Of a stretch of DNA of 64,000 nucleotides, positions 11,430-58,830 are shown one piece after another. A program made the translations under genes and the position numbers. Positions within the stretch are counted from its first letter, which is position 1. The number at the start of each line of letters is the position of its first letter. The stretch is from Carcharhinus longimanus (Eukaryota). Below the pieces are notes generated by a model. The model saw nothing but the letters and a program-made list of their open reading frames with translations. It had not been told where the DNA came from and did not search any database. Location of the stretch: assembly GCA_030264375.1 (NCBI GenBank), contig JASCQW010000105.1, positions 28,977,187-29,041,186 of the forward strand. Direction: 5' to 3'.

Positions 11430-11461
11430 GCTTCCTTTAGTTTTAACTAGTCAGCAGATGC
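11430..11461 (-). other. ITSN1: ITSN1 exon 2 5' UTR (32 nt)
   Basis: Branch-point-like tactaat then ctgttccAG|GCATCTG; gives a 60-nt exon 2 with 32 nt of UTR, the same geometry I recall for human. Confidence 0.85.
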
Positions 11462-11799
11462 CTGGAACAGATTAGTAATTATTAGCTGATTGAGCAGATA
11501 CTGGAGCTTACTATATGTTATGCAACAGACATCATATAAACTGTAATTCCACTTCTGATAAACGTGGAATACAAAATTATACAATGAGTCACTATTTGCA
11601 CATTAACTATGGCATTGCACTATAAATTCCAAGTGAAAATAAAGTACAGATTCAAAACTGAAAATGATGGGAGCAGGCAGGGCAGCATTCACGAAGAGGG
11701 AAGAGTTAATCTGTCAGATCAATAAATTATCAATATTTCTGATCCAACGTAAGAAAGCAATGGGGGGGGGGGGGGGTGGTGGGGAGCGTAGTAGTAGAG

Positions 11800-12020
11800 A
11801 ACCCTTCTAATCCTCTGACACTAAGGGGCAATTTAGCACGGTCAATCCATCTAACCTGCACATCTTTTGAGTGTGGGAGGAAACTGGAGCACCCGGAGGA
11901 AACCCACGCAGACACAGGGAGAACGCACAACCTCCACACAGTCACCTGAGGCCGGAATCAAACCCGGGTCCCTGGCATGGTGAGGCAGCAGTGGTAACCA
12001 CTGTACCACCATGCCATCCT
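11800..12020 (-). mobile_element. HE1-like tRNA-derived SINE, inserted within a fold-back element (~11650-12080)
   Basis: Minus strand GGCATGGTGGTACAGTGGTTACCACTGCTGCC...GGTTTGATTCC (A/B boxes) and GTGTCTGCGTGGGTTTCCTCCGGGTGCTCCAGTTTCCTCCCAC core. Confidence 0.85.
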
Positions 12021-12309
12021 GAGCCGCTGAAACAAACACTTCATTTCAGGTTCTGAGTATCTGCAGTATTTTGCTTTTGTATTAGTGAGGGGCAGGTCAG
12101 TGGGAGGGGCAGGTGCAATGGTTTAGATCTTTACTTTCAGTGATAGAAAGATAAGGAAAGGGTAAAGATGGTTGAAAAACTGCTCTAGCAAGCAGAGAAA
12201 GAGAGATTAGGATTGCAGAGCTTTCTGTAAATATATAGAGGGTAAACAAAGTGTCCAGAAGTAGTTAATTTTTGCAAAGGTACAGAGAGGGATATACTAT
12301 CAACTGACA

Positions 12310-12545
12310 CACAGGTGGCACAGTTAGTACTGCTGCCTCTCAGCGCCATGGACCTGGGTTCGATTCCTGGTTTGGGTCACATGTCCGTGTGGGTTTCCTC
12401 TAGGTGCTCCAGTTTCCTCCCACAGTCCAAAAGGTGGGTTCAGTTGATCGGCCATGCTAAATTAACACTGATTTCCCGGGGGGGGGTGTTGGTGTTGTTG
12501 TCAGTGCATGCTTGATGGGCCTCCTTCTGCGCTATAGGCATTTTA
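12310..12545 (+). mobile_element. HE1-like SINE
   Basis: GGTGGCACAGTTAGTACTGCTGCC...GGTTCGATTCC...GGGTTTCCTCTAGGTGCTCCAGTTTCCTCCCACAGTCC. Confidence 0.8.
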
Positions 12546-12639
12546 TGAACTCTCCACCACCTTCGAGGACATTTAAGGACGAACAATAAATGTGGCCATG
12601 CCAGCAATGACCGTATCACATGTAGGAATTGTGGAAAAT

Positions 12640-13700
12640 GGCAGATAGCTGGAACATGCTCCTTGCATCAAAAGAATCGATGCTCGCTCAGAAATTAAAG
12701 TTGATTTTCCAGGAAGTAAGGGTATTTCATAACAATAGAAATGACTGATAAGGAAGTAATGGACAGATTGATAACACTGAAGGAGGATAAGGCTGTAAGA
12801 CCGGATGATCTATACAAAAAAAAGTACCAAAGGAAATAGCGTAGGAATTAGTCAACCTGACAGAGACTTCTGATAAAATGTCAGAATTAGAAGTNNNNNN
12901 NNNNNNNNNNNNNNNNNNNNNNNNNNNNNNNNNNNNNNNNNNNNNNNNNNNNNNTGAAGTCACAAATGCAATTCTTCTCGGTTTATGGAGATGTGGCATA
13001 AAGACAGGAGAGCTCACACTGAACAAACCTGTTATAATTCATTCACACAGTACTGAAGCTTATGGATAAAGTAATCTTAAACATCATTTACCTGGATGAC
13101 AGCACATTTTAGATACAACACTTCTATTGTTTGATTGGTCTTTAAAACACAGAAGTGCAAAGAATAGGTGGGCAGCACATGACTAGTGGATATGTCAGTG
13201 TGTGAACTTTAACTGTTCCCTTTGTCTATTAAATGGGCAAGAAGACAAAATTTGCTGGGAAGAGCTCACGAGACGCAAATAAACTGACAGGTTGGGTTTA
13301 GAAATAGCAAGTGCCATACCGAATGGGACATGAGGAGGCAAGAGATGAAGGACTGGAAGTGCAAACCAAGTGATTTATTGTACAGGATACGACACAGGAA
13401 AAAAGCATTCATGGGAGTTTAACAGGTTACTGAAACCAGTTAGAGTTCTCAGGAGCAAGAGCAGCAAATAATGCAAAATAGAATCTTGGGGCGTAGGGCA
13501 TAAATCACAGGGTGTGAACCAGGAGTTTAAGAAATATCATTACTTCATTGTTATTTGCCATGTTCTGTTCAGCATGTTATAGGGTGAAAATCATATAATT
13601 AGGAAAGAAGCAAAGGATTACCAAACTGATAAATGGCAAACGGCAGCTTTTCTCATACCAATACTGAAGTCATACATATGGAAAGCATGGAAAAGTGAAG
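12640..13700 (+). mobile_element. Decayed CR1-like LINE fragments
   Basis: Degenerate CR1 ORF2-like stretches (GGAAAATGGCAGAT.., AAGGAAATAGCGTAGG..AGTC, AAATGGGCAAG..); many indels. Confidence 0.45.
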
Positions 13701-14002
13701 TGAGGTGTATGCTGGTTCCACACAACATTGACCATTCCCTCTGTGCAATTGCATGTAAATATTTCTTTTGATATTACCATTTGAAGTGCTATTAAGTTAT
13801 AGAAAATATTTAATCATAAATTATGAAATATTTGTTGTCCATCAAATGTATTCATTCTTAACTCAAGGGTTATAGTGAGTGAGTGAACATGTCCAATTTC
13901 AACGTTGCAGTCCATTGAGATGAAGAAAGTCCACTTAGGTGGCCCATTCTCTTGTCTAGATTGCCCATCTTTGATGTATATATTGGACCTTTATAGTACA
14001 GG

Positions 14003-14637
14003 TGTTAGGAAACCAAAATAGCTTTAAGAGAGTCATATTTGTATGGGTAAACATTAAAAATAAGGTATAGTTTCAGGTAGGTTTAATTTAATGTTTCTAT
14101 GCCTGGAAAGACTGATCGTTATATTCTTGCTGGACAAAAGTTGCTTGTATGTGTGGGGGGGTTGGCTAAGTTCCAACTGTGATAGAGCATCAAGTATAAA
14201 TGTAGTTGCTTAGCGACTAGACGCATGGTAAGAAAAAATAAGTTTTTTTTGTTCTTTAGTTTTAACTGAAAGCTGGAGCTTGACAGACAGCTGAAAAGGG
14301 AGTTTTCCTCTCAACTTTGGTATTGGGAAAGCCATACAAAGGAGTAATGTTTAGAAAGCTGGTGGCAGAAATCTGGCTTAGTTAAGGAAGCAAGAAAAAT
14401 GAAGAGGAGTGTTCAGAGATCTAAATTTAAAGGTACAAGAGGAACCAGGAGCAAGGAAGTAAGGGTATCGTAGTATGACCCATTTCTCCCCCCATGGTTT
14501 AATAAGAGTTTCTTTCTTGTTAATTAGCGATCCTGTGACTCTGTTCCTCCGTGTTTCATCACAAAAGAAGGTAAAAATGATCATCTTTGGGAGCTGGATC
14601 TTCCTGCCCAGTTACAAGACCAACTTGGATCACAACA
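14003..14637. mobile_element. Probable solo LTR
   Basis: Starts TGTTAGGA and ends TCACAACA (TG...CA with imperfect terminal inverted repeat); flanked by CAGG / CTGG, a near 4-bp TSD; no ORF. Confidence 0.5.
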
Positions 14638-16559
14638 CTGGCTGGCTACTAATGCTGACTTTGCCAACGATACCCACATCCCAGGAAATAATAAAAAGAA
14701 TCTTATATTACTGATATCTCAATTGTATAATGCAAAATATTTTATACTTGATAATGCAACCTCCAAACTTACAGTCTTCCACTTTGCACATCACCAGGGG
14801 TTCTAAGTATAATGTCAATGTCTGTGAACACTTAACCAGAAATCCAACAAGTGGGTCTGTAAGATGCAAGTACATCAATATCACTTGAAATGTTTAGGGA
14901 TGCAGTTTTAAATGCTGCAAATACAGAACATTTCCTATCCAGCTGTCTCTTGCTGAAAAATGATTTGAAATAGAAAAGCCCAATGAAATTACCAGTGAGT
15001 TTATAAATTAAAAAAAACTGAAAAAAATCAAGTCAAGCATTTGCATGAAATCGACAATCAGAGAAAAGCCACATTTTTTTTGTGAGCATATCCACAAAAG
15101 TATGCATCTCTAGTTGTAGGATAGTTGAAAGGTGCTTGCTCAGTTTTCAATGCCAGTCCATCAATCAAAAATGGCAGGAGTCATCCAAGAAACACTGTCA
15201 AATGTGTTTCTGGATTCGAAGCCAAGTCTTGTCATCTGACTGAGTTGGAGATTTTTTAAAAAACTGTGTCCTGACAAACAATAACAGCACCTTTAACACA
15301 GAAATCGCTCAAACATACTTACCAGCATAAGAGGGGGAAAAAAGAGCCAACAGAAAGGTTAAAAAAAGGCACAGAAAATTCAAGCAGTCTGTTAAATTAG
15401 ACCTCCAATGAGAATGTAATCAGCATCAATGCAATCACCAGTTACAGATTAGGAGACAGAGACAGATTAGGAACAAACTATTCTGAAACTTTTATTTAGG
15501 CACAGTAAAATTGACTGCAAATGGACAACATCAAGAGCATGTTGACATTTAAGAATCCATTGTACAAGCACTGAAGGAAAGAGACATGGCGAATGCATAG
15601 AATTTCTGTTTCTACTCGTGTGAAATATAATTGTAACGTGGACAGGCTGGGCCTAAAAGCCTGCTTGTGTTATAATTTCTAAACAATTCCACAACATACA
15701 TTACTGGCTGAAGAATATTCCCTTTTTCTCTGCCCCAATGATGCTGTCTCACGACATGAAATCCTTAACCCTCTCTCCCACCTGTTTAAAATGCAACAAT
15801 GCTATTATTCATGAATAATATATTACTACAAGAGTGCTCTTGTTACCGTCATTTTAACCCATCGCTATACTATTCTCCCCATAAACGGCAAGACATGTCT
15901 TAACTATTTAAATAACATGCTGTGCTACAGACAAAAAATATCCTCAGGATTCTCTAGTCACGTTCTGAGCTGTGCTGTTGGGGGAAGTAAACTTATTTCT
16001 CCACATCAAAGTTTGGAGGCAATAAAAGGAGAAAAAGAAACTACAAATGCCTCCGATTTGCGAGCTAAAAATCATCATCAGTAAAGTAACTAAATCAAAT
16101 TAACCATCAAGATGTGCAATGCTTTGAGGGCGAGCAGTTGCTATTTATGTCACTTAAAAACAGCAACAAGCATGAAAAATGCAATTGAGTTCACAGTAAA
16201 AGTTCAAGTACTTTTACTAGATCTCAAAAGTTGAATATATCCATCATGTACATTTTTGCAAGGAAATCTAGATTGAAATTAAGCATGGAAGACATTTGAA
16301 AAACTCAGGTTTTAAGTCAATCACACAATTCAGAATGCATAAAATATTCAAGTGCACAACTCATCTGAATGGAGACCTTTTACTTCACACAGGATCACGA
16401 TTTCATTGCCATGCATTTTAGCAAATCATCAATGGGTTAATTAAGTTTTAATACAAAGTACATGTGAACCCTTTTCATTTCCTGGCAGTCAATTAAACTC
16501 CTAAGATTTGGCGGTTTTTTAAAAAGAGGAATATCCAACTCCACAGGAAGAAAGCACTA

Positions 16560-16790
16560 AATCCCCTAGGCATCACACTCTGGTGTCTGTTCGGGTACAC
16601 CAAAGGAAAATTTAGCATGGCCAATGCACCTAAACAGCATATCTTTCAGACTGTGGGAGGAAACTGGAGCACCTGGAGGAAATCCATGCAGATATGGGGA
16701 GAAGTTCCAGACTCCGTACAGACAGTGACTGAAGCAGGGAATCAAACCCAGGTCCCTGGCACTGAGACATTAGTACTAACCATCGTGCAG
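16560..16790 (-). mobile_element. HE1-like SINE
   Basis: TTTAGCATGGCCAATGCACCTAA...GACTGTGGGAGGAAACTGGAGCACCTGGAGGAAATCC...GGAATCAAACCCAGGTCCCTGGC. Confidence 0.75.
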
Positions 16791-17647
16791 TCTACCACTG
16801 TCAGAGAGGACTGTCTGTGAAGGGACATACCAATGGTGGAGCAGACAAAGTCTGGGACAATTAAGCTCTGGCAGAAGTCAGTGAAACTTGTCTGAGGAAA
16901 GGCACAACGAGTGCACAAGGTGTGTCACAGGCTGAGAGTTATGAAATAATCCAAATTTGTGGGGCAGGGAGGCAGTACTGTCCTGAACAATAAATGGCAA
17001 GGCCCTCTCGATTTGATCTTGTTTGCATGACAATTGGGGCCTTGATTGATGGATTAGAGCATTACAAGATTGTAATATAATCTATGGATGTATCTTATTT
17101 AGCTCAAATCTAGGGATATACTTTGAAATTGGTACCACTATTTGAACAAAAGTGTGGGCTGCTTAATGGAGACCAATTCTTCCTGCAAAGAACACAAAAC
17201 AAGTTAAAAAGAAAATATTTGAGTCATGCCTATGAGTCATTATGAACAGAAGGGTGAACTGAGATTAAGCTCTAATAAAAGGGCATTACAATTCTAAGAA
17301 GGCTTAAAACAGGCAGCACCCCTAAATCTCAGGTTCACTTTATCTTGTGCCTGAAAGTATATTCAAAAATCTGGGCAGGCCCTTTACAATTTTTAGAAAT
17401 ACGTCATGATCTTATTGAATCCCTCTCAGAAGCAATTAATTGTTACAACCATGTGATAGAAGGCATAAGCAAGGAAAAAATAAGAGCCAAATGGCAAGGA
17501 ACAACATGGAAGCATTGTTCTTTTAAAAAAAAGAGTCAGGGCAAATGAAAATAAATAATGGGGGAGGGTAAAGATTGAAGGTCTGAACAAAGAGTTAGAG
17601 CTGACAAGGAGACAGGAGATAGAAGCTAAGGAGTTGAGAGGCAAGAC

Positions 17648-18047
17648 TAGTAGTAAGAAACCTGCAGCCCATGTGCGGTTTGTGCAGCCCACGAGTCATT
17701 TTGTTGACTTACTCACACACAGGGTTCCATATTCTACTGACTTCTGAGCACGTCGTTTTGTGACTGAAGTGAAAAGCAAGCGAGGTGTATGCAGACTGCA
17801 CACAACACTGTCAGAGAGCTCTGCACTGCCCTGTAAAGATTTGTGTTGCTTTTATCCATTTCAAAGTTGACAGCTCTAATAATATATAAATGATTAAACA
17901 TTTTGTGACTGGTTATGAAATACTTGGCACAATATAAATTTGTTTATTATTAATGGGGTCATGGTTTCTCATTTCAATCTTGCAGCCCACCATGATGGAG
18001 AGGAACTACTCTTGCAGCTTGCTCACTAGTCAAGGTTGCCCACCACT
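17648..18047. mobile_element. hAT (Charlie-type) non-autonomous DNA transposon / MITE
   Basis: Right end AGGTTGCCCACCACTG followed by CTAGAC (Charlie-like target site); degenerate left end with repeated TGCAGCCC subterminal motifs at both ends. Confidence 0.55.
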
Positions 18048-19324
18048 GCTAGACAGCTGAAGGTGCCACACCGCATGGGGAGAAAGGATGAGGGAATGTG
18101 GAAGAGAGCAGAGTTGGTGGAACACAAAGCTCCTGTGGAGTTGCACAGTAAATTACAAATGGAACAAAGCTTTGGAGGTATTTCAATACAAGAACAGATA
18201 AAGCAGCGGTTAGTCAGGGGCAGAAGTGGAGATTGCTTCATCTTAGCATCACCTATCAGGATTTTAATGCACAAAGTACTGATTGGAGCCTCAATTTGGT
18301 TATTATAATCGATGGAAATTGCCATTGATATTTTTGTATGTACACCATAAAATTGGATTCTCATTTAATAACATCCAGGAGACAGGCTTTGGAAAGCACG
18401 ATGCAAAAGGGATTTTCTGACTTAAACACAGCTTAGTTAGCTTGGAACAGGTCAGCAATTATGTCATTGCAAAAGATGAGCAGGAAGTGTGCACACTGAT
18501 AATTTTAACTTGTTCTACCATCAGTTTCAATGCACAGCAAATAGAACACTTCTGCTATCGGATGTGCTGTGTCAGAAACATTTCCACCACTGAAGCAAAA
18601 CTACTAAACAGGGCACATACTCAGAGGAAGTTATCCTCTAAAGGCAGACCAGTTTCGTTTATTATTCAAATGTATTATCTTAGTCTCTTTCCAGGAAAAG
18701 AGTATTCTTTAAAATCAGGCTAGGAATGCTGTGGCAATAACTCACCTCCTGACCCCTGATGTATTAATTTTGGTCTTAATCAACATTGCAGCCAAATTGC
18801 ATTTATGCAGGCAACAAGTTTTGAAAAGCAAATTCCAAATTAGGAACTAGATATCTGAAGAATGATTATCACTTGTGCGGATTAGTTCTAGTTAGTACTG
18901 ATGGATGGGTGGGAAGGGAAAGTAGGAGAAAGCAGAGATACTCAGTGAAACTATTATTTATCTTTCAAAACATTTGAAGTACTTAAAAATTTTAAAAAGA
19001 TCTTGGGAGCAAAAAGTAGCTGAACATCTGATCATACATCAGATCCAGTAGGATAATTGAATGCTCACCAGACTTTTTTTTTAATATATCAGTAGTGATA
19101 ATCCAGTAAATTACATTGTAAATTACACCATGTGCCACTTGAGGGGCAGAAATTATTAGCATCAATCTCCCAGAGATTATAAAAGGGACAATCAAAATGT
19201 TGACAAGTCTAAATAAATACAAATATCCAAACAACAAGAAAAATACAAAAGAGGGTACATTACCAGTAAAAGTTAAGTAAAGGAAAGGAAGTGTGTTACC
19301 CAGTTAAACCAAATGATATTGATT

Positions 19325-19830
19325 TTAAAATTCTTTCACGGGACATGGGTGTCACTGACAAGGCCAGCAATTTTATAGCCCATCCTGAATTGCCCTCAAG
19401 AAGGTCGTAATGAGCCGCTGCCTTGACCTGCTGCAGCCCATTTGGTGTAGGTACACCGCCAGTGTTGTTAGGGAGGGAGTTCCAGGATTTTGACCCAGGA
19501 ACAGTGAGGGAATGACAACAGATTTCCAGGTCAGGATGATGTGTGGATTGGAAGAACACTCTTGCAGGTGGTGATGTTTCCATGTACTTGTTGCCTCGTC
19601 CTTCTCAGTTGTAGAGGTTGTGGGTTCGGAAGGTACTCAAGATCCTGGTGAATTGCTGCAATGCACCTTGAAAGCTGGTACACGCTGCTGATCTGCGTAT
19701 CAGTGGTGGATGGGGTACCAATCAAGTGGGCTGCTTTTCCTAGATGGTGTGGAGCTTCTTGAGTGTTGTTGGAGCTGCACTGATCCAGGCAAAGGGAGAG
19801 TATGCCATCCCACTCCTTCCAGTCTGCTGT
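19325..19830 (-). mobile_element. LINE 3' end/UTR of a CR1/L2-group family with DeuSINE-like tail
   Basis: GGGAGGGAGTTCCAGGATTTTGACCCAG..GTCAGGATG..GCAGGTGGTG..TTCTTGAGTGTTGTTGGAGCTGCAC; homologous plus-strand copy at 46340-46980. Confidence 0.6.
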
Positions 19831-19949
19831 GCTTTCATTATCATAGCTTATCAAATTCCATGTCCTGATCTCACCTTTCCTTCACCCCCTCCACTGCCTG
19901 CCGCCACCCCCCCCCAACCATCCTGCATATTCCTTGATTACTTTAGCGC

Positions 19950-20345
19950 CTCGAGCTAGATGTAATTCCTTTTTGAGATCACACAACTACTTTGTGGTAG
20001 TGAATTCCACACATTCACCACCCTTCGAGTGAAGAGATTTCTCTTCACCTCAGTCGTAAAAGGTTTATCCCTCGTTCGCAAACTCTGATCCCTAGTACTG
20101 GACTCCCTTATCATTGAGAATGTTCTTTCTGAATCTATCCTTCCTAACCCTGTTAGAATTTTCTAAGTTTCTATGAAATTCCCTTTCAATCTTCTAAACT
20201 CCAATGGATATAATCCTAAATGACTTTGTCTCTCCTCATATGACAGACCTGCCATCTCAGGAATCAGCCTGGTAAACTTTTGCTGCACTTCCTCTATAGC
20301 AAGAGCATCCTTCCTCGGATAAGGACACCAAACTGCACAGAATAC
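19950..20345 (-). mobile_element. CR1 (HER1-like) LINE ORF2 C-terminal fragment
   Basis: CAVWCPYPRKDALAIEEVQQKFTRLIPEMAGLSYEERQSHLGLYPLEFRRLKGNFIET, a classic CR1 ORF2 end. Confidence 0.88.
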
Positions 20346-21259
20346 TTTGATTTGATTTATTATTTTCACATGTATCAGTGTACAGCATTGTTTGTGTGCT
20401 ACACAGGCAAATATTGTGCAATCAGCTCATCAGCAAACATCCCCACTTCTGACCTCATGATGTTTCACTGATGAAGCAGCTGAACATGGTTGGGCTTAGG
20501 ACACTACAAATAGACTAGATAGCCAGTAGAGTATATTAAAAACCCAGGACCTTGGAGGATTTATCTGCACTTGTGCCTCACTACTTGCAAATGAATCTGC
20601 TTGCCTAAGTGTATGAATCATAGTTGTATTATTGCAGGAAGATTTCAATGGAAATGTCAAACATGTGTTGGCTGAGGCAATTCAAACAATGACAAATGCA
20701 TTGCAGGAAATCCTCATGACTGCAAAAGATGAACAGATAACCACAACTGAAAATGAAAAATCTTCCTTCAAAGTTGGATACATTACACAAATGTTACTAA
20801 AATATTCCAAAGAGCTATTGTACATGGACACACTGGATATCAAAATTTTCATTCAGTGGAGGACAAGAACTGACCAAAGGTTTACACAACGGTACGTTAT
20901 TGTTCATGGCCACTAGAGGGAGCTCAATTTATACCTTGTAGCTGAACAATATTGGTGCAAAAGCCACTGATGCAGCAGACTCCAATATTCCATTACTGCT
21001 AAATAATTGACTAAGCTGTACCTAAACACTGGAGTGCACTAGTTCTGCCTGCAATGTTTCATTTCGTTATCAACTTTCATAGCTTAAATTTAACATTACC
21101 CACTCAGCACAATCCTGGTGCATTCCACTTTATGTGCAAGCACATTGGCCTCTGCTCAACGTATAACAATTTACGTCTTCTGTAGCATCTCAAACATAGT
21201 AAAGCATTCAAAGGCAATTCACTGTAATGACCGTCAAATAAAAATGTGATACAACCACA

Positions 21260-21515
21260 TACTGCTGCCTCTCAGCACCAGGGACGAGGGTTTGATTCCT
21301 GGCTTGGGTCACTATCTGTATGGGGTTTGCATGTTCTCCCTGTGTCTGTATGGGTTTCCTCTGGGTGCTCCAGTTTCCTCCCAGGGTCTGAAAGTCATGC
21401 TGGTTAGGTGCATTGACCTGAACAGGCGTTGGACTGTGGCAACTAGGGGAATTTCACAGTAACTTCATTGCAGCACTAATGTAAGCCTTACTTGTGACTA
21501 ATAAACAAGCTTTAA
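21260..21515 (+). mobile_element. HE1-related SINE with a different 3' tail
   Basis: ACTGCTGCCTCTCAGCACCAGGGAC..GGTTTGATTCC..GGGTTTCCTCTGGGTGCTCC core, tail GTAAGCCTTACTTGTGACTAATAAA. Confidence 0.75.
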
Positions 21516-21680
21516 ACATAGAAACATAGAACATTACAGCACAGTAGAGGCCCTTCGGCACTCAACGTTGTGCCGAGCTATGTCCAATTCCAAGATCAAG
21601 CCATCCCCTCCCTATAATTCTGGAGTGCTCCACGTGCCTATTCAATAACCGCTTGAAAGTTCCTAAAGCGTCTGACTTGA
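21516..21680 (-). mobile_element. CR1 3' terminus
   Basis: ACATAGAAACATAGAACATTACAGCACAGTAGAGGCCCTTCGGC is the reverse complement of the CR1 tail with (TTCTATG)n repeats. Confidence 0.7.
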
Positions 21681-21699
21681 CTTTAACTTTAACTTTTAA

Positions 21700-47356: not shown

Positions 47357-47780
47357 GGCAGCACAATGGCATTGTGGTTAGCACTGCTGCTTCACAACAC
47401 CAGGGGCCCAGGTTCAATTCCAACCTCAGGTGACTGTGTGGAGTTTGCACATTCTCTGTATGCCTGTGTGGGTTTCCTCTGGGTGCTCCAGTTTCCTCCC
47501 ACAGTGGAAAGGTGTGGAGGCTGGGTTGATCAGCCATGCTAAATTGGCCCTTGAATCGGGGGGACTAGCAGGATAAATATNNNNNNNNNNNNNNNNNNNN
47601 NNNNNNNNNNNNNNNNNNNNNNNNNNNNNNNNNNNNNNNNNNNNNNNNNNNNNNNNNNNNNNNNNNNNNNNNNNNNNNNNGGGGGGGAAAGAAGAGAGGA
47701 GGAGGAGGAGTTGGGATTATTATCAGTGCAGGTTCGATGGGCCAAATGGCTGCCTTCTCTACTGGAGGGATTCTATGAAA
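47357..47780 (+). mobile_element. HE1-like SINE, near full length (gap inside)
   Basis: GGCAGCACAATGGCATTGTGGTTAGCACTGCTGC..GGTTCAATTCC..core..CR1-type tail GGGCCAAATGG...GGATTCTATG. Confidence 0.8.
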
Positions 47781-48399
47781 TTCCATATGGGGTGAATGAA
47801 GAATACAAAAAAACTCTTTAATCCAGAAACAAATTAATTCAGAGAAATTAGAACATAAAAACTCCTCCGCAATACAACTCCTGGCTGCTCATTCAACCAC
47901 TACACATCCTGCCTCCTGGATCTCTATTTAGTTCTCTCTACTTTACTACCTGATGGCTTTATAAGGTCTCCTTAAACTTCTTCCACTATGGCATCGTCAC
48001 CCTCCACCTGCAAATCCTCATGGTTTTCCCTCATGCCTGGCATGTACTGTTTCTTCTTTAACCTATTGTGCTTGGAGACATTTAACCTCAAATTAAAACA
48101 CTGGAGAAATACATGTTGTAATGTGGAAAAATAAATACCACTACACCAGGGAACGGTCTTGAGGTTGGGAGGAAAGCACACTGTTGACAGAAAGCAGAAC
48201 CAGCTTTGCACTACATTTGCTCTGTGCTATACCTGAACTGTGCAAAGGAATATAATGAGGAAAACCTACATTTCCTAATCAGCAACTTGATTAGAAATAA
48301 AAAGAACTGATTTTTTTTTTACAACTTCTCTTTTCTTAAAACGTGATTAAATCAGAAATATTGCAAGTTATTTGCCTGTTCCAACTCCACACTGCAGCT

Positions 48400-49880
48400 T
48401 CTTTCTAATATCTGCAGGTGGAATGCAGAGCTTACATAATTAAATTTGTGACAATGGCTGTAAATGTATTGAGAAGCAAGTGTCAGGGATCATTTAGGTA
48501 ATGGCAATCACAATGTAAGAGATGTGGGTAAAAATTGAGAAGTACATATGAAAGAAAACAATCAAAGTAATAAATTGGGGCGGGAAAGGTTATTTTAAAA
48601 TGGTGAAAATGGAGCTCAGGAAAATAAATTTGAAACACATACAAATAAAAATGAATTAAAACTGCAGTGAATCCAGGAGCATAACATCCCATTAAAAAGC
48701 AATTAGATAATAATCACGCAAGAATTTTTTAAAAAGGGCAAAATGGAAAATAAAAACACATTACAAATACCTACACTACAAAAGAGAGGATGCCAAAAAG
48801 AGAAAATATAAAGATCAGAAAAGTTTAAAAAAGCAACTAAGACATTGAGAAGTTACAAAACTAAATTGTCCCAGAATTTAATAATGAAATATTTGATACA
48901 GAATAAATTAGGAAAGCCACAAAGTAGGAAGATAACTAATCAAATTAGAAAAGATAAGATCCCTTGTCCACAGGAATTCCATCTGTGCATAATCCAAGTT
49001 GAAGAAATGACAGAGGGACAATTGAAAATTGAAAACAAAAAGGGAACAGAGAACAAGATACAGCTAATATGGTTCTTATATTTAAAAACTGAGATAGAAC
49101 AAGTCCAGAGAACTAGAGAGCAATAAACACAATGCCTTTGGTAGGCAAGATAAATGGAATCCTTACTCAAACAAGTAATTGAAAAACATTTAGAAACCAC
49201 ACTAGCATTGAAACTTTCTGAATTCTTTGATGTAATATACTGTCCTCAGGGAGTGCGGCATCAGTTTGCCAAAACCATACCTGAAATTAGGAGGCTGCAC
49301 AAACTAGGGTTCCTTTTCCTGGAACTTAGATAATTAAGAAGTGATCTGATTGTAATTTAAGATATTAGGGGGAACAGAAAGGGTAAATAGAAATGAATTG
49401 TTTTCACTGGCTGGGGAATCAAAGCTTCAGAGGACACAACTATAAAAATCAAAACTAGATCTTTCAGAAGTGAGATTAACGAATACATAGGAAGTATGGT
49501 AAAAGTTTGAAACTGTCTTGCACAAAATTGATCATTGAGAGGTCAACTGTAAATTTTAAATCTGAAGTTAATAGCTTATCCACTTATAGTAAAGAATATG
49601 GGGCAAAAGCATGTCTCTGGACATAGGAAACAGAGCAGCCATAATCTTACTGAATGGTAGCAGAAGCAAGCTAGAGGAGTGAATTAACCTATTCCTGTTC
49701 CTAAGCGAAAATATAATCAAGCGTAGTCAGCATAGGTTTCAAAAGGAAGGTCATGCTTGACCATCTTATTGAATTTCTGAAGCAGCAGATAAGGGTAATC
49801 TGCTAAATCTAATAGATTTGGATTTAAGGGTCCTTTGATAAGGTATTATGTTATAGATTTACAATTAAGGTTAGATCACG
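48400..49880 (+). mobile_element. Decayed CR1 fragments
   Basis: CR1 C-terminus/3' UTR (CTAGGGTT..CTGGAACTTAGA..GGTGATCTGATT-like; CAGCCATAATCTTACTGAATGG..CCTATTCCTGTTCCT) and an RT segment (AGTCAGCAT..GGAAGGTCATGCTTGACC). Confidence 0.6.
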
Positions 49881-50499
49881 TGGACTGGAAGTATTCTCCC
49901 TTTCCTCTTTCATAGTCTCCCTAATACTTTCAACATCCCATCTCAGTGGCTGCTCAGTCTAATTCATCTGCCTTTTCTCAAACCAAATCATATTAAGCTT
50001 GTACTGTTCCTCACGGTCCATTTTCAGCATGACACTCCATAATAAACTTCATTAATCTTGTCTTTAATCAATATTTAGACTTTCCCTTTGCACTCTTAAT
50101 TCTCACTTCGTTGGTGCATCTGCCAACTTAGGGCATTATACTTTTGATTCCCTGAATTGTGTCAGATGATCCAACAGTTTCATGTTGATCAAAATGCTCA
50201 GGTAGTCACATGCATTTATAGAAGTCTTCATAACTTCTGTTACGCCTACACTAATAACCATTCTGGAGCATTGATGCTATTTACTAAAACTGCAGTCAAT
50301 TAAACATGCTTACGAACACAAAACGGTCAACACAACTGACAGCTTCTTTCAGCTGAGGTTATTCCACTTAGTTAGCTCTTCCCTTTCCATTACTTCTGCA
50401 TACATGTTAACATGCAGCATCCTCACTATATTCCTCCTCCGACCACACCTGGATCAGACTGTGTCTTAGCTCATGACGTGCAATTTGTACTATGTTTTT

Positions 50500-50790
50500 C
50501 TTTCATTCTTTCATGGGATGTGGCCATTGTTAGCAAGGCCAGCATTTTTTGCCCATCCCCAATTGCCCCTTGAACAGAATGGCTTGCTAGGCCATTTCAG
50601 GGGCAATTAAGTTAAGTCAACCACACTGCTGAGGATCTGGTGTCACATGTAGGCGAGTTTTTTTCCTACAGATTTTATTAATTGACTTTAAATTCCACCA
50701 GCTGCTACGGCGGGATGTGAACCTATAGTCCCAGGAAATTAGCCTGAGCCTCTGGAATGTTGATGACATTTCTACTAAACTACTGCCTCT
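50500..50790 (-). mobile_element. DeuSINE-like element
   Basis: TTCATTCTTTCATGGGATGTGG..AAGGCCAGCATTT..GCCCATCCCCAATTGCCC..AGTCAACCACA..GGATGTGAACC. Confidence 0.65.
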
Positions 50791-51559
50791 CTTTTAATTC
50801 CAATCCATTCCAATGTTCTTTCCTATCTCCATTAATTTGATCCAATTCATCAGAAAAGATCTTTTTTCAAAAACCCACAAAAGCAAATGAGCATGATCAT
50901 GCCCTATGCTCTTCTTGTACAGCGCACTCATTATCCCTATTGTCTCTCTTCTCCACTTGTTCTCCACTTCCCTGAGATTTGTCNNNNNNNNNNNNNNNNN
51001 NNNNNNNNNNNNNNNNNNNNNNNNNNNNNNNNNNNNNNNNNNNNNNNNNNNNNNNNNNNNNNNNNNNNNNNNNNNNNNNNNNNNNNNNNNNNNNNNNNNN
51101 NNNNNNNNNNNNNNNNNNNNNNNNNNNNNNNNNNNNNNNNNNNNNNNNNNNNNNNNNNNNNNNNNNNNNNNNNNNNNNNNNNNNNNNNNNNNNNNNNNNN
51201 NNNNNNNNNNNNNNNNNNNNNNNNNNNNNNNNNNNNNNNNNNNNNNNNNNNNNNNNNNNNNNNNNNNNNNNNNNNNNNNNNNNNNNNNNNNNNNNNNNNN
51301 NNNNNNNNNNNNNNNNNNNNNNNNNNNNNNNNNNNNNNNNNNNNNNNNNNNNNNNNNNNNNNNNNNNNNNNNNNNNNNNNNNNNNNNNNNNNNNNNNNNN
51401 NNNNNNNNNNNNNNNNNNNNNNNNNNNNNNNNNNNNNNNNNNNNNNNNNNNNNNNNNNNNNNNNNNNNNNNNNNNNNNNNNNNNNNNNNNNNNNNNNNNN
51501 NNNNNNNNNNNNNNNNNNNNNNNNNNNNNNNNNNNNNNNNNNNNNNNNNNTTGTATGTT

Positions 51560-53090
51560 CTTCAGTCCTTGATTTCTCAAATGAAATCAATTTTGTGTCA
51601 GCCTTGTTGCTTTCTGTTGTATATTGCACAGAAAACATTAATGTGGATTTGCAACTGGCAGTGATTACTGAAATAACTATTTGCATCACCTCAACAGAGA
51701 AAGCTGCTGAAGATTACATTCTGGAACTAAAAAACTCACTCATCACTATGGATATGGCACAAACTTAGAAATTAATCTTAGAGATATTTTTGCACGAGAC
51801 CCAGAAGACAATAAATTTGAGGCCAAACTCCTGAGGAAAGGGGTGGGGAGGTCCATCGGATTTTACTAAGATCCAGGTTATAGAAACCAAATTCACAATT
51901 TCGGAGGCAGGAATTTAGATGCTTCCATTGTTATAATAGTAACCAAATATTTAAATATCCCCATTTCCAAAGTGCGGCACTTGAGGGAAAGCCAGTCAGA
52001 GCTAGACAGCATGCAGAAGCAGAGGAAACGGTAATGCTCCAGATCAAGGTTGTGGTAGATCTCAAGCTAGTTCAGCAGCGTGGAGATCCAAGACTGCATG
52101 TACGATATGTGGAAACAGAAGATGATGTTATAGAGCAGGAAGATCAAGAGTTGCAGTCAAGAGTGGAAGAAAAGCAGCATGTGAAAGATGAGACTGGGTC
52201 GAAGACAGAATTCCAGTACCCACAACAGAAATTATTCACAACTTTCTTGCACCATTAAGACAGCTGCAGATGTGTCTCTTACGTCAGAAGGAAAGTACAA
52301 GTCTCCGAGTTAAATTCCCTTAAGTAAAACTGACTAGTCATTCCAATAACAATATTCCACTATTGGTGAAGTTGATGATTATTACTTACGTGGAGAAAAA
52401 CTGCAGCAGGCGACGGTGCAGAGGGACCTCGGGGTCCTTGTGCATGAGTCGNNNNNNNNNNNNNNNNNNNNNNNNNNNNNNNNNNNNNNNNNNNNNNNNN
52501 NNNNNNNNNNNNNNNNNNNNNNNNNNNNNNNNNNNNNNNNNNNNNNNNNNNATCAGCCATGATCTTATTGAATGGCGGGGCAGGCTCAAAGGGCTAGTTG
52601 GCCTACTCCTGCTCCTATTTCTTATGTTGAGTAGAAAACAATGATGCATCCTATTACTTGCTAAGAGTAATAGGCAGAAGGAACAATGTCTCAACAATGG
52701 AAAGGAACTGGTTTAAGAAAATCCTGTTTAGCTGAGCAGATATAGTATGTCTGACATCGACAGTACAAAATGATCTTTGAGAAAGGCAGACAAAATGATA
52801 AAATTAGGCATCACAAGGCCAAAGTCAAGATAAAGGACAATATACAGCTGATATTTTGCAAGGCTAGGCCAGTGGCTCATACAGAGCTGGAAGCAGGAAG
52901 AACTGGATTAGAAAGAACAGGGACAATTAAGATGATGAAAAGTTATGAAGTATGCCTCAGAATGAGAAACAATCCTATCAAAGTCCCTTTCCTTCCGTGG
53001 TCAAACACGAAGAAACTGGGAGTGAATGCTGAGTTATTAGAAGTGGAAGGCAAAAATAACTCCAGCAAGTGGATGAATGCTGAGTCTACG
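51560..53090 (+). mobile_element. Second, heavily deleted Gypsy-type element (gag Zn-knuckle, protease, RT N-terminus, integrase start)
   Basis: RCFHC..CGT.GK..CRS knuckle remnants (~51920-52020); KTAADVSLTSE resembling DTGA.VSLISE (~52255); AKVKIKDNIQLIFCKARPV..LERTGTIK; NPIKVPFLPW. A CR1 tail with a gap is inserted at ~52410-52625. Confidence 0.7.
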
Positions 53091-53099
53091 TCCAACAGT

Positions 53100-53410
53100 A
53101 CAAGCACAGTGCTAAGCACAGCTGCCTCACAGTGCCGGGTTCTATTCCAGTCTTGGGTGACTGTTGTGTGGAGTTTACACATTCTCGCCATGTCTGCATG
53201 GGTTTTCTCCCACAGTCCAAAGGTGTGGTTAAATGGACTGGCCATGCTAAATTGCCCCTATCATCTAATGATGTGTCAATAGGTGGATTAGCCATGGTAA
53301 ATTCAGAGGGTTACGAGGATAGGGCAGAAGGAAGGGATGCCCTTTCGGAGAGTTAGTATAGATTTGATGGGCCAGATAGTCTGTTTCTGCACTAAGGATT
53401 CTACAATTCA
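53100..53410 (+). mobile_element. HE1-like SINE
   Basis: CACAGTGCTAAGCACAGCTGCCTCACAG..GGGTTCTATTCC..TGTGTGGAGTTTACAC..GGCCATGCTAAATTGCCCC..GATTCTA. Confidence 0.75.
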
Positions 53411-55224
53411 ATGGTATTAAAATTATTGAGATTTTGGGAAGTTGGTTTGCAATTCATAGGTTGCCTGCGGTGTGAGTCAGAAATGGTTCACAGTCTACAT
53501 CAAGAGAGTTTGAAATGCTTCAGTAAAAATCAAGTTAAATATACTCTAATACAGCATCAACAGATTGTGAGATCTTTGCAAAAGTATTTGCTAGATGACA
53601 AGCTAGGCAGTAGTTTCCATGTTTCTCTTTAGCACAGGCTAGACAATTTTATGTTCTCTTAAAAGATAACCCCATAGTCTCAAAGAGTCTGCTCACCTAA
53701 TGAATTAGACAGTTCAGTGCTGGTCAGAAGATCAAAGCAGAAGCATGTGACTGGAGTTGTTGTAAAGAGTCTACCCACTGCAATCCACGTGACATAGCTT
53801 CATTGTGCTGTTAGGAAAAGAGTTCAACCCAATAAATAGCAAAGGAAGTCCAAGTGTGGATGGTGTAGGGTTTGGAATGGAATTTGCAGGATGTGGTGTT
53901 GCCATGTACCTGCTACCCTTGTCTTTTTAGGTGTTGAGAGCACAGGTTTGGAAGCTGCTGTTGGTGGAAGTTCAAGTTACTGCAATGCATCTTTTATATT
54001 GCGTACAGTGCTGCCATTGTGCCACCTCTTGCCAAATGATATAATTGTTAAACATATGACTACTAAGCAAAAATTTCTTTTAACTTGCAAGCAAATCTGT
54101 TAGATTTTCAGATGTTGCTAATTGCTGCATTTTCTCCATGAATTTAATTGGTTCTGCAAAAATGTCATGAATGCTGACTATCTTTCCATTCTTTGACTCA
54201 ATGGAGAGCAATCATCATTTCACACTTCATTCCATGAAGAGCTTCATGGCTCAAACAATCAACTTCTATCTCTTCTTCCCTTTTCTATTTCAAGATCAAC
54301 ACCCCACACCACCCCCCCTCCCCAGACACATGCATTCTCGTGTAGTTCTATTGGGTTACTCAATAGCTATCCAGCTCAATTTTTGCTTTAACTCATTTCC
54401 AGTGTTTACATCAATCCTCCTCAACCTCCTACAACAATTCAGTTGTCTCCCCAATTCAACTCTTCAAAGTTGTGGGAGGTAAATTTCTCTCTCCAGTGCT
54501 TGTTTTTTTAAATTTCTGGGATGTTTGTTTCCTCCCTTTCCTTCACTTTTTACCAGCTTTGTCACCTGTTATTTTTTAACCCTTTACCAGATTCAGGATT
54601 TGTCCGACACTTTTCAAATACTTCCTTTAGCTAACACCAACCATTTACGCATTCTTTAATTATTTTGTAATTAGTCACTCAGTCGGAACCTCAACTCAGC
54701 TTGTCTTTCAACTCCTCCAAATTCTACTTTCTCGTATACGTACCATGCTTTATTCAAAATAAAATCTTTGATCACATTCAAATTGTGATCAGAATCAATA
54801 CCTGCACCAGTAAATCTTATTATTTCTGTACCTGTTTCAGGATGTAGCCATAGGACTGATTACATGTAATACTTTTGCGTGAAGTGGAAAAAAATCTGCC
54901 ATAACCCCTTCCCCAATCCCAACCCCACACAGCCAACCAGACAGTTCTACAGACTGGCATAAGAAGCCAAATTTTGGTGAAGTGTCCCAATCCTAGCAGA
55001 GGAAAAATGCAATAAATAGAATTTTATGTTATTTGGATTTTTCATCCGAAGAGTCAGCTGCATGATCAGAAATTTAATACTTCAAACTTATCCAATAGAC
55101 ACTGTGCTACTGTTAGATACAAATCCTACTTTGTATAATTCCTACAGGATCTCAACTAAGGCGCTCAAGGCTGTACAAGAACAAATGATAGTGTATTTAT
55201 TGGAATACATGGGATTAAGAAGAA

Positions 55225-55680
55225 TAGAAAGGCACAGAAACAGGCCATTTAGCCCAATGAGTCCACACTGCTTTTATGCTCCATTTAAACCTCTTCCCAT
55301 CTTTCCTCATTTACATCTACTATCACAACCCTTCTCCTTCAAAGTTTGTCTTGCTTGCCATAAAATGAATTTTATTTGCTTCAATCATTCCCTGTGGTCA
55401 TGAGTCCACATCCTTACCACTCTTGGAGAAAGAAATTTCTTCCAAATTCCCTATTAAATTTCTTGGTGACTATCTTATATTGATAGCCTTATAAACATTT
55501 TTTCTTCTTCCACTCAATCAAAACCTGTCATAATTCTCAATACCTCTGTTTAGTCACCCCTCAGCTTTCTTTTGTCTAATGAAAAAGACCCAATCTGTCA
55601 ATCCTTTCCTTCTTCTGAATTTCCAAACATTTCTGCTATCATCCGTGCAAATTTTTTCTGCACCCTTCCCAATACTTTTA
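55225..55680 (-). mobile_element. CR1-like 3' fragment
   Basis: GGCACAGAAACAGGCCATTTAGCCC..TTCCACA..ACCACTCT..AAATTTCTT..TTTTTCTGCACCCTT pattern. Confidence 0.55.
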
Positions 55681-56754
55681 TATACTGTAAATCCATTCAA
55701 CCACTTCTGACATTACTTCTTTGCACAGGAGCAACCATAATTAAATGGTTTACTCATTGTCACATGTACCTTTAAAAGGAATGCCAAAGTCTCCACAATG
55801 CAAGGTTATGAGAATTGAGAAGTCTCTTAGTGCAGTATTCCTATTCACAAATTTAAGTCGGTTTACTCAATTAAAACATATTGCCAAAAAATTAGCTTCA
55901 ATCATTAGAAACGATTGAGGGTAAACCATCTGACAAATTGCAAAAAGATAGGTATAGCAAACAACTGTAAACCCATTCTACGCTTTAAAACCATATTTTC
56001 TGCCAAGATTTCATTAATATAATTGGAAACTCTGATTATGTTCTCTATGTTACATAACTCTAGTTATGTTCTCATGAAAAGATGAGAAATGCGATCCAGA
56101 CACTCCAAACTAAAGAAATGTGACAGCACCCTATGCTCCCTCAAGTCTTGCAGTTTACTTCTACATTAACAGATTCTCAAAGCCATGTGACATAAGTAGG
56201 TTCCAAGAGGCAAAAGTAGGAAATAAGGGAAAATAAAACATACGGCACCTTATTTCCATCCTGCTTCCAGTTGCATTCATAAAGACAGAAAAATAGGTTT
56301 TCAATCTTTGTGATGCATGGCTATTCCAAAAAGAAAGACAAACCTGTCATTTCACATACCTTTTCACTATTGGCAATGCAATTTCAAATTGCACTTAGTT
56401 GATAAAGACTTTGATGTTGTAAATATTGTGTGAATGTTAAGAAATGAAAGATCTTTATATTTCAAAATCACACAAGGTTCATATTGAACCTTGTAAAATT
56501 TCTAGTACATTTAGAATGTTAATTCAGAATTTTGACTAGCATTCTCTACATACATTTTCCTCAAGATTCTGACAACATGTAATCAACAACTCGAATCTGA
56601 AACCCATCCGTCAAAGTTTAATTTCCATAAGAATGCTTTTGCAACATCAAAACTTATTTTCCAAATTACAGTGAAAGGGTCAATAACAATTAACTCTAAA
56701 TATATATGCAGTTACCATACAAATAATCTAATCACAATATTGAGAACAGTCATC

Positions 56755-56840
56755 CAGACTCAAAACATTAGCTGTGTTCTCTCTCCACAGATACTGTCAG
56801 ACCTGCTGAGATTTTCCAGCATTTTCTGCTTCTGAACACA
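56755..56840 (+). mobile_element. Half copy of the fold-back element
   Basis: AAACATTAGCTGTGTTCTCTCTCCACAGATACTGTCAGACCTGCTGAGATTTTCCAGCATTTTCTG. Confidence 0.65.
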
Positions 56841-58169
56841 ATGCTGACTGCTAACGCAAATCATTGCCATTACCAAATACATTTTGCACATGCTTCCCAG
56901 TTCATTAGCACACAGCCAGCACACTATGGAATAAATCATATTTTAAAGTAGATTTGGCAAATCTCACCAGGTTACACTGTCAGTTGCATCATCATGATTA
57001 ATGACCGTAGTTCTATAGTCTAACCTAACCTCAAGGTGGATACTCATTTTGCTGAAAAAAAATCCATAATTATTTGTTCAACACGATGCTAAATTTCAGA
57101 TTTCACTGAATACAAATAACACCTCTAAATAACCTTTCCCAAATGACAATCAGTTTGAAATGTCAGTGCTCAAAAAATGGTAGGAGTTGCTACACGCCGA
57201 TTATGTTTAATTAACTCCCAGGATCGGTCTGTTTTAGACTGTATTTTTGAAGTATTAGAACCGGGCGCCAAACGCACCACCACTTCAGAAACCAACACAT
57301 TTTTTAATACTATTCTTGCAGCATTCGTTTACTCTTTTGCAATTAACACAAACGAAACAGCAAGCTCGGAATCTTCACAGTTCTGCTTAAATGTTGCTCA
57401 ATACGTTTGATTTCTAAAAAGAAAACTGGAAACAGGGACGTGACTAGATTATTTGGGGTTGCGTGTAGTACTCCTGGCATTTTCACAAAATGAAAACGTC
57501 TAGAAATAATTAACATGTACAATTCGCTCTTCATATTAAGTAACAGCAATCAGAGAGAAAGAAAAGAGGACTTGCCGCTTCCTTGCAATGGTCCAAAAAA
57601 ACACTTGTATCAGATTACACTTAATATTCTCTCCAACAACCCCCTCCCCCGGGCCCAATCCACCCTGCAACAGAGGAGCTGGGAAAAAAAAGGGGAAGGA
57701 AAGCAAATAAACCATCATCCCACCACGTTTTATCCCTGCAACACCCCCATGGTCCAAGAATCACCAGGCAATCAGGAGCAGGAATCACCGCCACAATAAC
57801 ATGCAACAAATAACCTCATAAAGTCCCCTCACCTCCCCTGACTTTACTTTTAATGTACAGCAGAAATCCAAGGGAACTGTGCTGCTTGATAGCAAATAGT
57901 TTAAAAGGCTGAGCACCAAAATGAGTTACCATAGTAGACGGGGGGGCGGGGGGGGGGGGGTGGAGGAGGAGAAGGGAGAAAAGCTTNNNNNNNNNNNNNN
58001 NNNNNNNNNNNNNNNNNNNNNNNNNNNNNNNNNNNNNNNNNNNNNNNNNNNNNNNNNNNNNNNNNNNNNNNNNNNNNNNNNNNNNNGGAGAAGGGAGACA
58101 AGCTTGCAGCAAACAGTGCCTCGAATAACAGGAGACAGTTAATCCCCTGGCTGCAGGCAGAGCCATTGC

Positions 58170-58830
58170 AGGGGCTGGGAAGCCAAGCCGCTTACCTCAT
58201 CTCGGGGAGGGCTAGCGGAGGGAAGAGTCGCTCACTCAGCCCAGGGTTCAGGGCCTCCCCCTCCGTCTACCCCTATCAGCCGAGCTGTCTTGTCGATCCG
58301 CCGGCGAGCGAGTGCAAGGAAAGGAAAGGCAAGGGGCCACCCCCCTCTCTCTGCTCGTTGCCTAGTGTCTGAAGCTAACACACCCTCTCCCTCTCTCTGT
58401 ACGTTAGCCAACGCGCCCAGACAACCAAACCCGACAACGGAAACCCGATCCCCGCCCCCTCCAGCCACCAACTCGCTGATTGACAAGCGGTCTAACCTAT
58501 CAGAATGCACAGTGCCGTCCACCTCGGCTGGAAGATGACCAATCAAAGACGGCTCCCATCTGCCACTAAGCTTGGCTGTATCCCACCCCCGTGCCCCCCA
58601 CCTGCTGGAAACTCGCCGCGCAACCCAACCTGCTGAGAGTTCAGCACGCCGGAAGCCCCACCCACTCCGACTGATTGACAGCAGCGCCGACCATAGAACG
58701 TGCGGATTGTCCCGTCGCTCTGCAGCAATGAGCGAATCGAAAGTGACTGGAGGGGCGGTGCTTCGCTTCCCGACATTGCCATCAAGTTGGGTTGACTCAG
58801 TGACCATGGCGACGCTCAGGCTGCGTTTGG
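58170..58830. promoter_or_regulatory. CpG-island promoter of ITSN1, possibly bidirectional
   Basis: Sharp local rise in GC and CpG. GC boxes (CCCCGCCCC ~58450, GGGGCGG ~58752), CCAAT ~58539, TGATTGACA twice (58477, 58672), AP-1 TGACTCA 58793, X-box-like GTGACCATGGCGAC 58800. Confidence 0.85.
58196..58440 (-). other. ITSN1: ITSN1 non-coding exon 1 (3' end exact, 5' end estimated)
   Basis: Strong donor CCCCGAGATGAG|gtaagc at the edge of the only CpG island in the window; the 3' end resembles the human exon 1 end (...ggagatgag) as recalled. Confidence 0.8.

Follow-up and report, generated by a model that had tools for sequence, protein, structure and literature searches.

A seven-codon upstream reading frame joined across a 46.7-kb intron as a candidate translational damper of shark ITSN1

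The window, by which we mean the whole 64-kb stretch of DNA that was analysed, carries the first six exons of ITSN1 on its minus strand. The gene was identified by a protein match to PDB 2KHN/3FIA (E 5e-23), and exon 6 is 100% identical to ITSN1 of Mustelus asterias and 93% identical to that of Stegostoma, which marks the window as shark DNA. The same match, together with the identity of exon 6 to ITSN1, rules out ITSN2. The main ATG coincides with the protein start in 108 of 120 ITSN1 proteins, and none of these 120 proteins has an N-terminal extension, save for one residue in an incomplete model. The region from 58201 to 58850 has a GC content of 0.60 and a CpG o/e of 0.76, versus 0.25 for the window. 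A search of intron 1 for a second CpG-rich island of the promoter kind found none, and no Rfam family was matched in the window. The features are as follows:

58421 to 58850, no strand assigned: putative promoter region, CpG-rich and TATA-less, with GC boxes at 58452 and 58753 and a CCAAT at 58539
58196 to 58420, minus strand: ITSN1 exon 1, non-coding leader; the 5' extent is a minimum deduced from the loose end of an RNA contig, the 3' end was matched in 3 of 4 runs
58198 to 58200, minus strand: upstream ATG, with G at -3 and A at +4, the sole ATG of the leader
11462 to 58195, minus strand: intron 1, 46,734 nt, GT-AG
11402 to 11461, minus strand: ITSN1 exon 2, with 32 nt of leader and 28 nt of coding sequence; its joint to exon 3 is present in RNA contigs
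11443 to 11461, minus strand: exon-2 half of the uORF (upstream open reading frame), encoding HLLTS and ending with TAA at 11445-11443; its counterpart is L001:9500-9518
11451 to 11453, minus strand: main-frame (ITSN1) stop, 24 nt upstream of the main ATG; TGA here, TAA in L001
11437 to 11439, minus strand: second in-frame stop of the uORF, one codon beyond the first; TAA here, TGA in L001
11427 to 11429, minus strand: main ITSN1 ATG in a strong context (A at -3, G at +4); the protein begins MAQFPTAFG
9585 to 9677, minus strand: ITSN1 exon 3, from RNA contigs and the comparison with L001
5240 to 5303, minus strand: ITSN1 exon 4, from the comparison with L001
3851 to 4008, minus strand: ITSN1 exon 5, EH1 domain
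3499 to 3678, minus strand: ITSN1 exon 6, from the match to shark ITSN1

A preliminary description of this DNA had proposed that splicing of exon 1 to exon 2 builds a uORF, and all of its coordinates check: the ATG lies at 58200-58198, the donor follows 58196, the acceptor precedes 11461, and the intron measures 46,734 nt. The joined frame was likewise confirmed on the minus strand as MRHLLTS*, with its stop at 11445-11443 and a spacer of 13 nt to the main ATG at 11429. The view that exon 1 contains a lone ATG with a purine at -3 was also borne out, since 58200 is the only ATG in the leader and its -3 position is G; the next ATG, at 58559, is outside the 257-nt shark leader. The uORF begins at -37, is out of frame with ITSN1, and leaves 13 nt between the end of its stop and the main ATG. 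A role of the upstream ATG as the start of an N-terminal extension is excluded by this frame and by the main-frame stop at -24. Exon 1 ends with ATG-AG at 58196, which places the ATG at donor positions -5 to -3; the unspliced frame reads only MR* because the donor itself supplies a stop. In 5,000 shuffles of the leader, an ATG was present in 78% and a uORF of up to 10 codons in 36%, and a uORF ending within 20 nt of the coding sequence (CDS) occurred in 3.8%. A uORF as such is thus ordinary by chance, and one that ends this near the CDS is less common.

The exon 1-exon 2 junction was seen in RNA contigs from three of four runs, which derive from organisms A, C and F, close relatives of the shark of the window and not necessarily the same species. 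One contig per run joins exon 3 to exon 2 across a GT-AG intron and then continues beyond exon 2 with letters that match exon 1 at its 3' end, ATG and -3 G among them (30 of 30, 29 of 30 and 13 of 15 letters identical by eye). The longest of these loose ends measures 223 nt, so that exon 1 reaches at least to about 58420 if this end, of which 30 letters were compared, is colinear. Exon 2 has a single upstream partner in all three covering contigs, an assembly product that drops rare splice forms. The exons are outside the coverage of the fourth run, X10, which has no bearing on the junction. An assembly artefact was rejected, as the junction and exons 2 and 3 are present in independent runs. 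Spliced RNA from three shark-like organisms therefore contains the seven-codon frame. A donor-like 9-mer is located at 58383, upstream of the uORF ATG, and its use would remove that ATG.

A pattern search for exon 2 found one locus in metagenome contigs and none in prokaryote genomes or viral contigs; a protein scan returned from the prokaryote genomes only a distant EH-like match (L002, 38%) and nothing from the viral contigs. The metagenome contig, L001, is regarded as bird-type on the basis of a repeat-derived ORF with 23 matches, of which the 5 named ones are all birds. It is the one non-shark DNA sequence in the comparison; it begins 9.5 kb upstream of exon 2, without exon 1, and no conserved non-coding element was found between these 9.5 kb of intron 1 and the window. 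The acceptor, the 60-nt length of exon 2, the uORF stop and the spacer length are all identical in L001 and the shark. The exon-2 half of the uORF carries 4 base changes, all of them silent, which leave the peptide HLLTS unchanged: 0 of 5 residues differ in the uORF frame versus 2 of 5 and 3 of 5 in the other two frames. Background change between the two sequences amounts to 6 of 13 sites in the spacer and 9 of 20 four-fold coding sites. In this single pair, and with tests that were chosen after seeing the data, the probability of an unchanged peptide given 4 changes was 0.003-0.009, or 0.004-0.016 when the main-frame stop was held fixed; the contrast between codon positions alone was not significant (Fisher P 0.077). 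All three stops hold their position in L001 (simulated P 0.06), the second and the main-frame stop by way of stop-to-stop changes.

For mammals, the comparison relies on a mis-framed cat gene model, P0133, the only such reading of exon 2 among 23 protein matches. Its exon 2 has the same length as in the shark and allows stops at both places, and at least 2 of 5 residues differ from the shark uORF peptide. By eye, its 11 exon-2 residues equal the same-frame reading of the human leader as given in the preliminary description. The M-S start of this model fits the upstream ATG but is an annotation artefact. The conserved geometry proposed in the preliminary description thus holds for the exon-2 half, directly in L001 and indirectly in the cat model, and the upstream ATG was seen in DNA of sharks only. 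The divergent peptide proposed there applies to mammals and does not apply to the shark and the bird-type contig.

Two searchable human ribosome-profiling catalogues contain another ITSN1 uORF and not the seven-codon one; a third has no ITSN1 row, and a fourth has almost no ITSN1 footprints. The supplementary files searched of PMC7889888, PMC6742470 and PMC5701008 contained nothing usable on ITSN1. Two genome-editing papers print a guide over the coding start and not the leader sequence, and no ITSN1 leader sequence was present among the morpholino matches listed. The literature searched thus holds no prior report of the seven-codon uORF, although Ribo-uORF, uORFdb, the figshare files of PMC7889888 and bioRxiv supplements may list it.

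From the arrangement of the leader, we consider the seven-codon frame a candidate ancient leaky-scanning uORF that on balance probably damps the output of ITSN1, and uORF-based translational control of this gene is a reasonable inference. The medium context of the upstream ATG (G at -3, A at +4) would cause part of the scanning ribosomes to start there, and the remaining ribosomes would leak past the uORF to the strong main ATG and produce ITSN1. Ribosomes that translate the uORF would mostly be lost before ITSN1, since 13 nt is short for reinitiation; leaky scanning is therefore the likelier route to ITSN1. Read-through of the first stop would be caught by the second before it could run on as a frame overlapping the CDS, and N-terminal extensions would be barred by the main-frame stop. 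Translation of the uORF would count for more than its peptide, which appears to have changed in mammals, and the uORF would be older than the split between sharks and bony vertebrates. Vertebrate uORF starts and ends are reported to be depleted within about 100 nt of CDSs, where repression is strongest (PMC4890304), and the long retention of the ITSN1 uORF therefore suggests selection.

It is also conceivable, though unlikely, that the bases next to the donor and at the start of exon 2 are kept as splice signals or enhancers, with a uORF that is rarely translated and has little effect. This would suit an ATG so close to the donor (-5 to -3) and a conserved stretch that makes up the opening 19 nt of a 60-nt exon after a 46.7-kb intron, and it would agree with the absence of the uORF from the human catalogues searched and with the frequency of short uORFs by chance (36% of shuffles). 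However, the changes are silent in the uORF frame only, and two stops became other stops, which counts against a splice enhancer because such an element does not predict these changes. We consider it improbable that the heptapeptide itself is selected in non-mammals, where it could act in cis on the ribosome or in trans (e.g. through its di-leucine on endocytic adaptors), and that it gave way to a basic peptide in mammals. A peptide of seven residues would engage little of the exit tunnel, the codons for Leu-Thr share bases with the conserved main-frame stop and could be kept in place by it, and the cat differs at no fewer than 2 of 5 residues. The identical peptide of the shark and L001, with silent changes only, favours selection on the peptide but concerns one pair. 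Precedents would be the 5-residue di-leucine peptide of the MTMR3 uORF, reported to bind clathrins, and arginine-rich short uORFs, whose repression was reported to be partly residue-dependent (PMC10032668); nevertheless, fewer than 1% of uORFs seem to code for peptides under selection (PMC7889888).

Even less probable is a switch at the RNA level, in which translation of the uORF triggers nonsense-mediated decay, or the choice among alternative first exons or donors turns the uORF on and off between tissues. Very short uORFs usually escape decay and, although the uORF stop is upstream of all coding-exon junctions, it is only 41 nt from the next one. The donor-like 9-mer upstream of the ATG and the MR* reading of unspliced RNA would permit toggling, but the single upstream partner of exon 2 in the three covering contigs and the lack of a second CpG-island promoter in intron 1 argue against it.

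The damping of ITSN1 by leaky scanning would matter for a gene reported to be dose-sensitive: protein-truncating ITSN1 variants are linked to autism and, by haploinsufficiency, raise the risk of Parkinson's disease about tenfold (PMC12124131), which is what gives the uORF its importance. If it is repressive and has been kept since the split between sharks and bony vertebrates, the uORF would represent a natural dial on ITSN1 dose, a site at which to seek non-coding risk variants (stops lost, start context strengthened) and a testable target for increasing the output of the healthy allele. A bolder and improbable version is that this splice-built uORF has kept intersectin-1 throttled ever since jawed vertebrates arose; that its peptide, with a di-leucine unchanged from sharks to birds and basic in mammals, may feed back onto the ITSN1-scaffolded clathrin machinery; and that, with the uORF start blocked, the intact allele would yield more ITSN1 in haploinsufficient carriers (Parkinson's or autism). 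In general terms, codon-level conservation can be present in a very short uORF split by a huge intron, where length cut-offs and alignments of unspliced sequence overlook it. Short regulatory uORFs are already a well-known class, and the ITSN1 case would add one member to it, a moderate surprise.

Among AUG uORFs of 3-15 codons, 36 of 221 cases are reported to be conserved to non-mammalian vertebrates, for example the MTMR3-uORF (Sandmann et al. 2023, PMC10032668). The ITSN1 uORF resembles these in being very short, AUG-started, non-overlapping and, as regards its stop and spacing, conserved in position, and its shark and bird peptide shares a di-leucine with that of the MTMR3-uORF; the searchable supplements of that paper hold no row for it. 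In contrast to those uORFs, which were called from ribosome footprints, the ITSN1 uORF is known here from sequence and spliced RNA, has its two parts separated by a 46.7-kb intron and terminates just 13 nt short of the CDS. Like conserved peptide uORFs (CPuORFs; Takahashi et al. 2020, PMC7530721), it shows only silent change in its frame between distant vertebrates. CPuORFs are defined by a Ka/Ks below 0.5 in two or more further orders and by repression that depends on the peptide sequence, whereas the count of 0 replacement and 4 silent changes comes from the one pair of shark and L001, and the peptide differs in a mammal.

Delayed reinitiation of the ATF4/GCN4 type combines a permissive upstream uORF with an inhibitory downstream uORF. 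The short ITSN1 uORF near the CDS could take the inhibitory part, and a further translated uORF lies upstream in human ITSN1. The 257-nt shark leader has a single ATG and, therefore, this two-uORF logic cannot apply there, while the human leader may differ. The human uORF, c21riboseqorf12, encodes 18 residues within exon 1 and is classed as primate-young. It is longer than the seven-codon uORF, unspliced, further upstream and has no ATG counterpart in the shark leader; like the seven-codon uORF it is located in the ITSN1 leader, and it shows that the human leader is translated.

The gene on the minus strand is ITSN1 (intersectin-1), as its exon 5 matches human intersectin-1 structures (PDB 2KHN/3FIA; E 5e-23) and its exon 6 shows 100% identity to ITSN1 of Mustelus asterias and 93% to that of Stegostoma, which also marks the window as shark DNA. 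The preliminary description placed on this strand a uORF, MRHLLTS*, that is split by a 46.7-kb intron and ends 13 nt before the main start. Coordinates, frame and gap were all reproduced when exons 1 and 2 were joined across the 46,734 nt of intron 1, and the upstream ATG, said to be the only one in exon 1, is the single ATG of a leader of at least 257 nt.

Elements of the ITSN1 uORF
58200-58198, minus strand: upstream ATG, near the 3' end of exon 1
58197-58196, minus strand: AG after the upstream ATG, preceding the GT donor
11461, minus strand: start of exon 2, directly after the AG acceptor
11443, minus strand: end of the uORF TAA, followed by 13 nt to the main ATG
11429, minus strand: main ITSN1 ATG, opening MAQFPTAFG

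Position -3 is G for the upstream ATG and A for the main one, and position +4 is A and G, respectively. Near-cognate ACG/CTG codons at -103, -88 and -76 share the uORF frame (58302-58216, minus-strand leader) and could extend the uORF N-terminally. Without splicing, the upstream ATG opens MR* (58200-58192), the stop of which belongs to the donor site; scans limited to genomic sequence would therefore register another uORF.

The junction between exons 1 and 2 is real. When contigs from four public runs, presumed to be of RNA, were aligned to positions 9500-11740, one contig per run in three of them (shark-like organisms A, C and F) skipped intron 2 with GT-AG ends and matched exon 2 without mismatch, the exons being outside the coverage of the fourth run. 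Beyond 11461, the letters of all three contigs are those of the exon 1 3' end, including the ATG and its -3 G (by eye, 30/30, 29/30 and 13/15 printed letters agree), in agreement with the 58196-11461 junction for which the preliminary description had asked confirmation in RNA. These contigs, which omit rare splice forms, derive from relatives and not from the organism that best matches the window DNA. Since the longest loose end reaches 223 nt, exon 1 extends to about 58420, if colinear. On the 5' side of the ATG, exon 1 also contains a second donor-like 9-mer at 58383 (7/9 consensus). Splicing from it would remove the uORF start, and was seen in none of the three junction contigs.

Such a uORF in one shark is unremarkable, because of 5,000 dinucleotide-shuffled leaders 78% contained an ATG, 36% a uORF of at most 10 codons, and 3.8% a uORF whose end lies no more than 20 nt from the CDS. 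The case must therefore rest on conservation. When the coding start of exon 2 was sought in metagenome contigs, one locus emerged, L001, which carries ITSN1 exons 2-4 and is called bird-type because every named match of its repeat-derived ORF is avian (23 matches; 5/5 named proteins). L001 has no exon 1, and the comparison covers the exon-2 half only. This half equals the shark in acceptor, length, TAA and 13-nt spacer, and its uORF frame reads HLLTS* in both, all four base changes being silent, whereas 2/5 and 3/5 residues changed in the remaining two frames. Neutral sites had turned over, since 6/13 spacer bases and 9/20 four-fold coding sites differ. A second uORF-frame stop one codon past the first (shark TAA, L001 TGA) and a main-frame stop at -24 (TGA and TAA, respectively), neither of them mentioned in the preliminary description, are also present in both. 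For this one sequence pair, with tests picked after its inspection, the probability that four changes in 15 nt leave the peptide unaltered is 0.003-0.009 (0.004-0.016 with the main-frame stop fixed), 10 random changes leave all three stops intact in 6% of simulations, and the codon-position contrast gives a Fisher P of 0.077.

Among 120 listed ITSN1 proteins, 108 start with MAQF, 11 lack this start and one has an additional residue. One of the 11 is P0133, a Prionailurus iriomotensis gene model (NCBI 'intersectin-1 isoform X3') with a mis-framed N-terminus, apparently due to one additional base at each of two junctions. It begins M-S and then translates the exon-2 leader in the third frame over 11 codons to the main ATG, and the leader length is therefore identical in a mammal. 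The M-S start, a model artefact, fits ATG-AG plus one additional base, which is only suggestive. The residues of P0133 permit, but do not prove, stops at both uORF-frame sites and at -24, and they rule out Thr and Ser at the final two peptide positions. The human leader quoted in the preliminary description gives, by eye, the same 11 residues in that frame, with stops at all three sites, and this agreement makes the quoted sequence credible. To judge from these sequences, the geometry likely reaches mammals and the peptide does not. Thus, the conserved geometry proposed earlier holds for the exon-2 half in L001, with the upstream ATG read in the shark, while the proposed peptide divergence applies toward mammals and not between shark and L001.

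We consider it probable that the uORF is a leaky-scanning damper of ITSN1. Ribosomes initiating at the upstream ATG would terminate 13 nt before the ITSN1 start, a gap presumably too short for efficient reinitiation; the second uORF-frame stop would block read-through into the overlapping frame, and the -24 stop would preclude ITSN1 extensions. In vertebrates, this zone close to the CDS is depleted of both uORF starts and uORF ends, according to PMC4890304. An origin as a by-product of splice signals, which the ATG-AG abutting the donor would suit and the stops kept beyond the acceptor would not, is unlikely. A peptide-dependent uORF, to which the shared HLLTS would point and the mammalian residues would not, is less likely still, and transcript decay or an isoform switch, the three junction contigs all bearing the upstream ATG, seems quite improbable. 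It is similarly a long shot that the mRNA of this endocytic scaffold protein carries a di-leucine peptide conserved between sharks and birds, together with a start codon whose blocking would raise ITSN1.

Published tables bear on translation. The supplements of PMC10032668 and PMC4739776 each list a single uORF for ITSN1, in both cases one 57-nt ORF within human exon 1 (primate-young in PMC10032668), and not the seven-codon uORF. PMC6742470 has no ITSN1 row, and ITSN1 footprints are nearly absent in PMC6528255. A 7-codon ORF spanning a junction is easily overlooked in footprint tables; still, tables that detect the uORF next to it do not list it, which makes strong translation in the cells concerned less likely.

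A splice-built short uORF on ITSN1, deeply conserved in its exon-2 half, is real, and we infer its function. It shares the anatomy of short AUG uORFs and may work alike. The logic of the ATF4/GCN4 leaders is not that of the shark leader. By the CPuORF criteria of PMC7530721, the uORF is at most a candidate member, and membership fails toward mammals. According to PMC10032668, human ORFs of 3-15 codons number 221, of which 36 are conserved outside mammals, and PMC12124131 describes ITSN1 as a dose-sensitive disease gene. A literature search on ITSN1 and uORFs did not bring up this leader, although uORF databases with exhaustive coverage, outside that search, probably list it computationally.

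Immediately past the inferred exon 1 5' end lie a GC box (58452), a CCAAT box (58539) and a CpG island. The promoter at 58420-59005 looks bidirectional: each strand has GC boxes, and there are an ATGGCG element (58806) and a plus-strand donor-like site near 58999. The divergent neighbour in human is CRYZL1; plus-strand translations up to 64000 identified no such gene. A short repeat family of about six copies (11812-12004, 12323-12463, 16597-16782, 21260-21418, 47359-47568 and 59882-60071), resembling a shark tRNA-derived SINE, has one copy that precedes the acceptor of exon 2 by 350 nt. Another contig, filed under a Gemmataceae MAG, contains an EH-domain-like stretch (L002:7237-7368; 38% to ITSN1 exon 5) that is possibly eukaryotic contamination. 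Long shark and ray isoforms (proteins P0025, P0028, P0030 and P0031) have 1754-1759 residues, about 40 more than listed amniote ones (at most ~1720), and the additional sequence is internal because their N-terminus is unchanged. Lastly, at 9660-9662 (exon 3, minus strand) Cys replaces the Trp of other vertebrates at the EH1 start (DIC versus DIW); 6/6 shark and ray proteins among the matches listed carry it, and the window sequence recurs without a difference in two RNA runs, so that the Cys is a trait of cartilaginous fishes and not an error.
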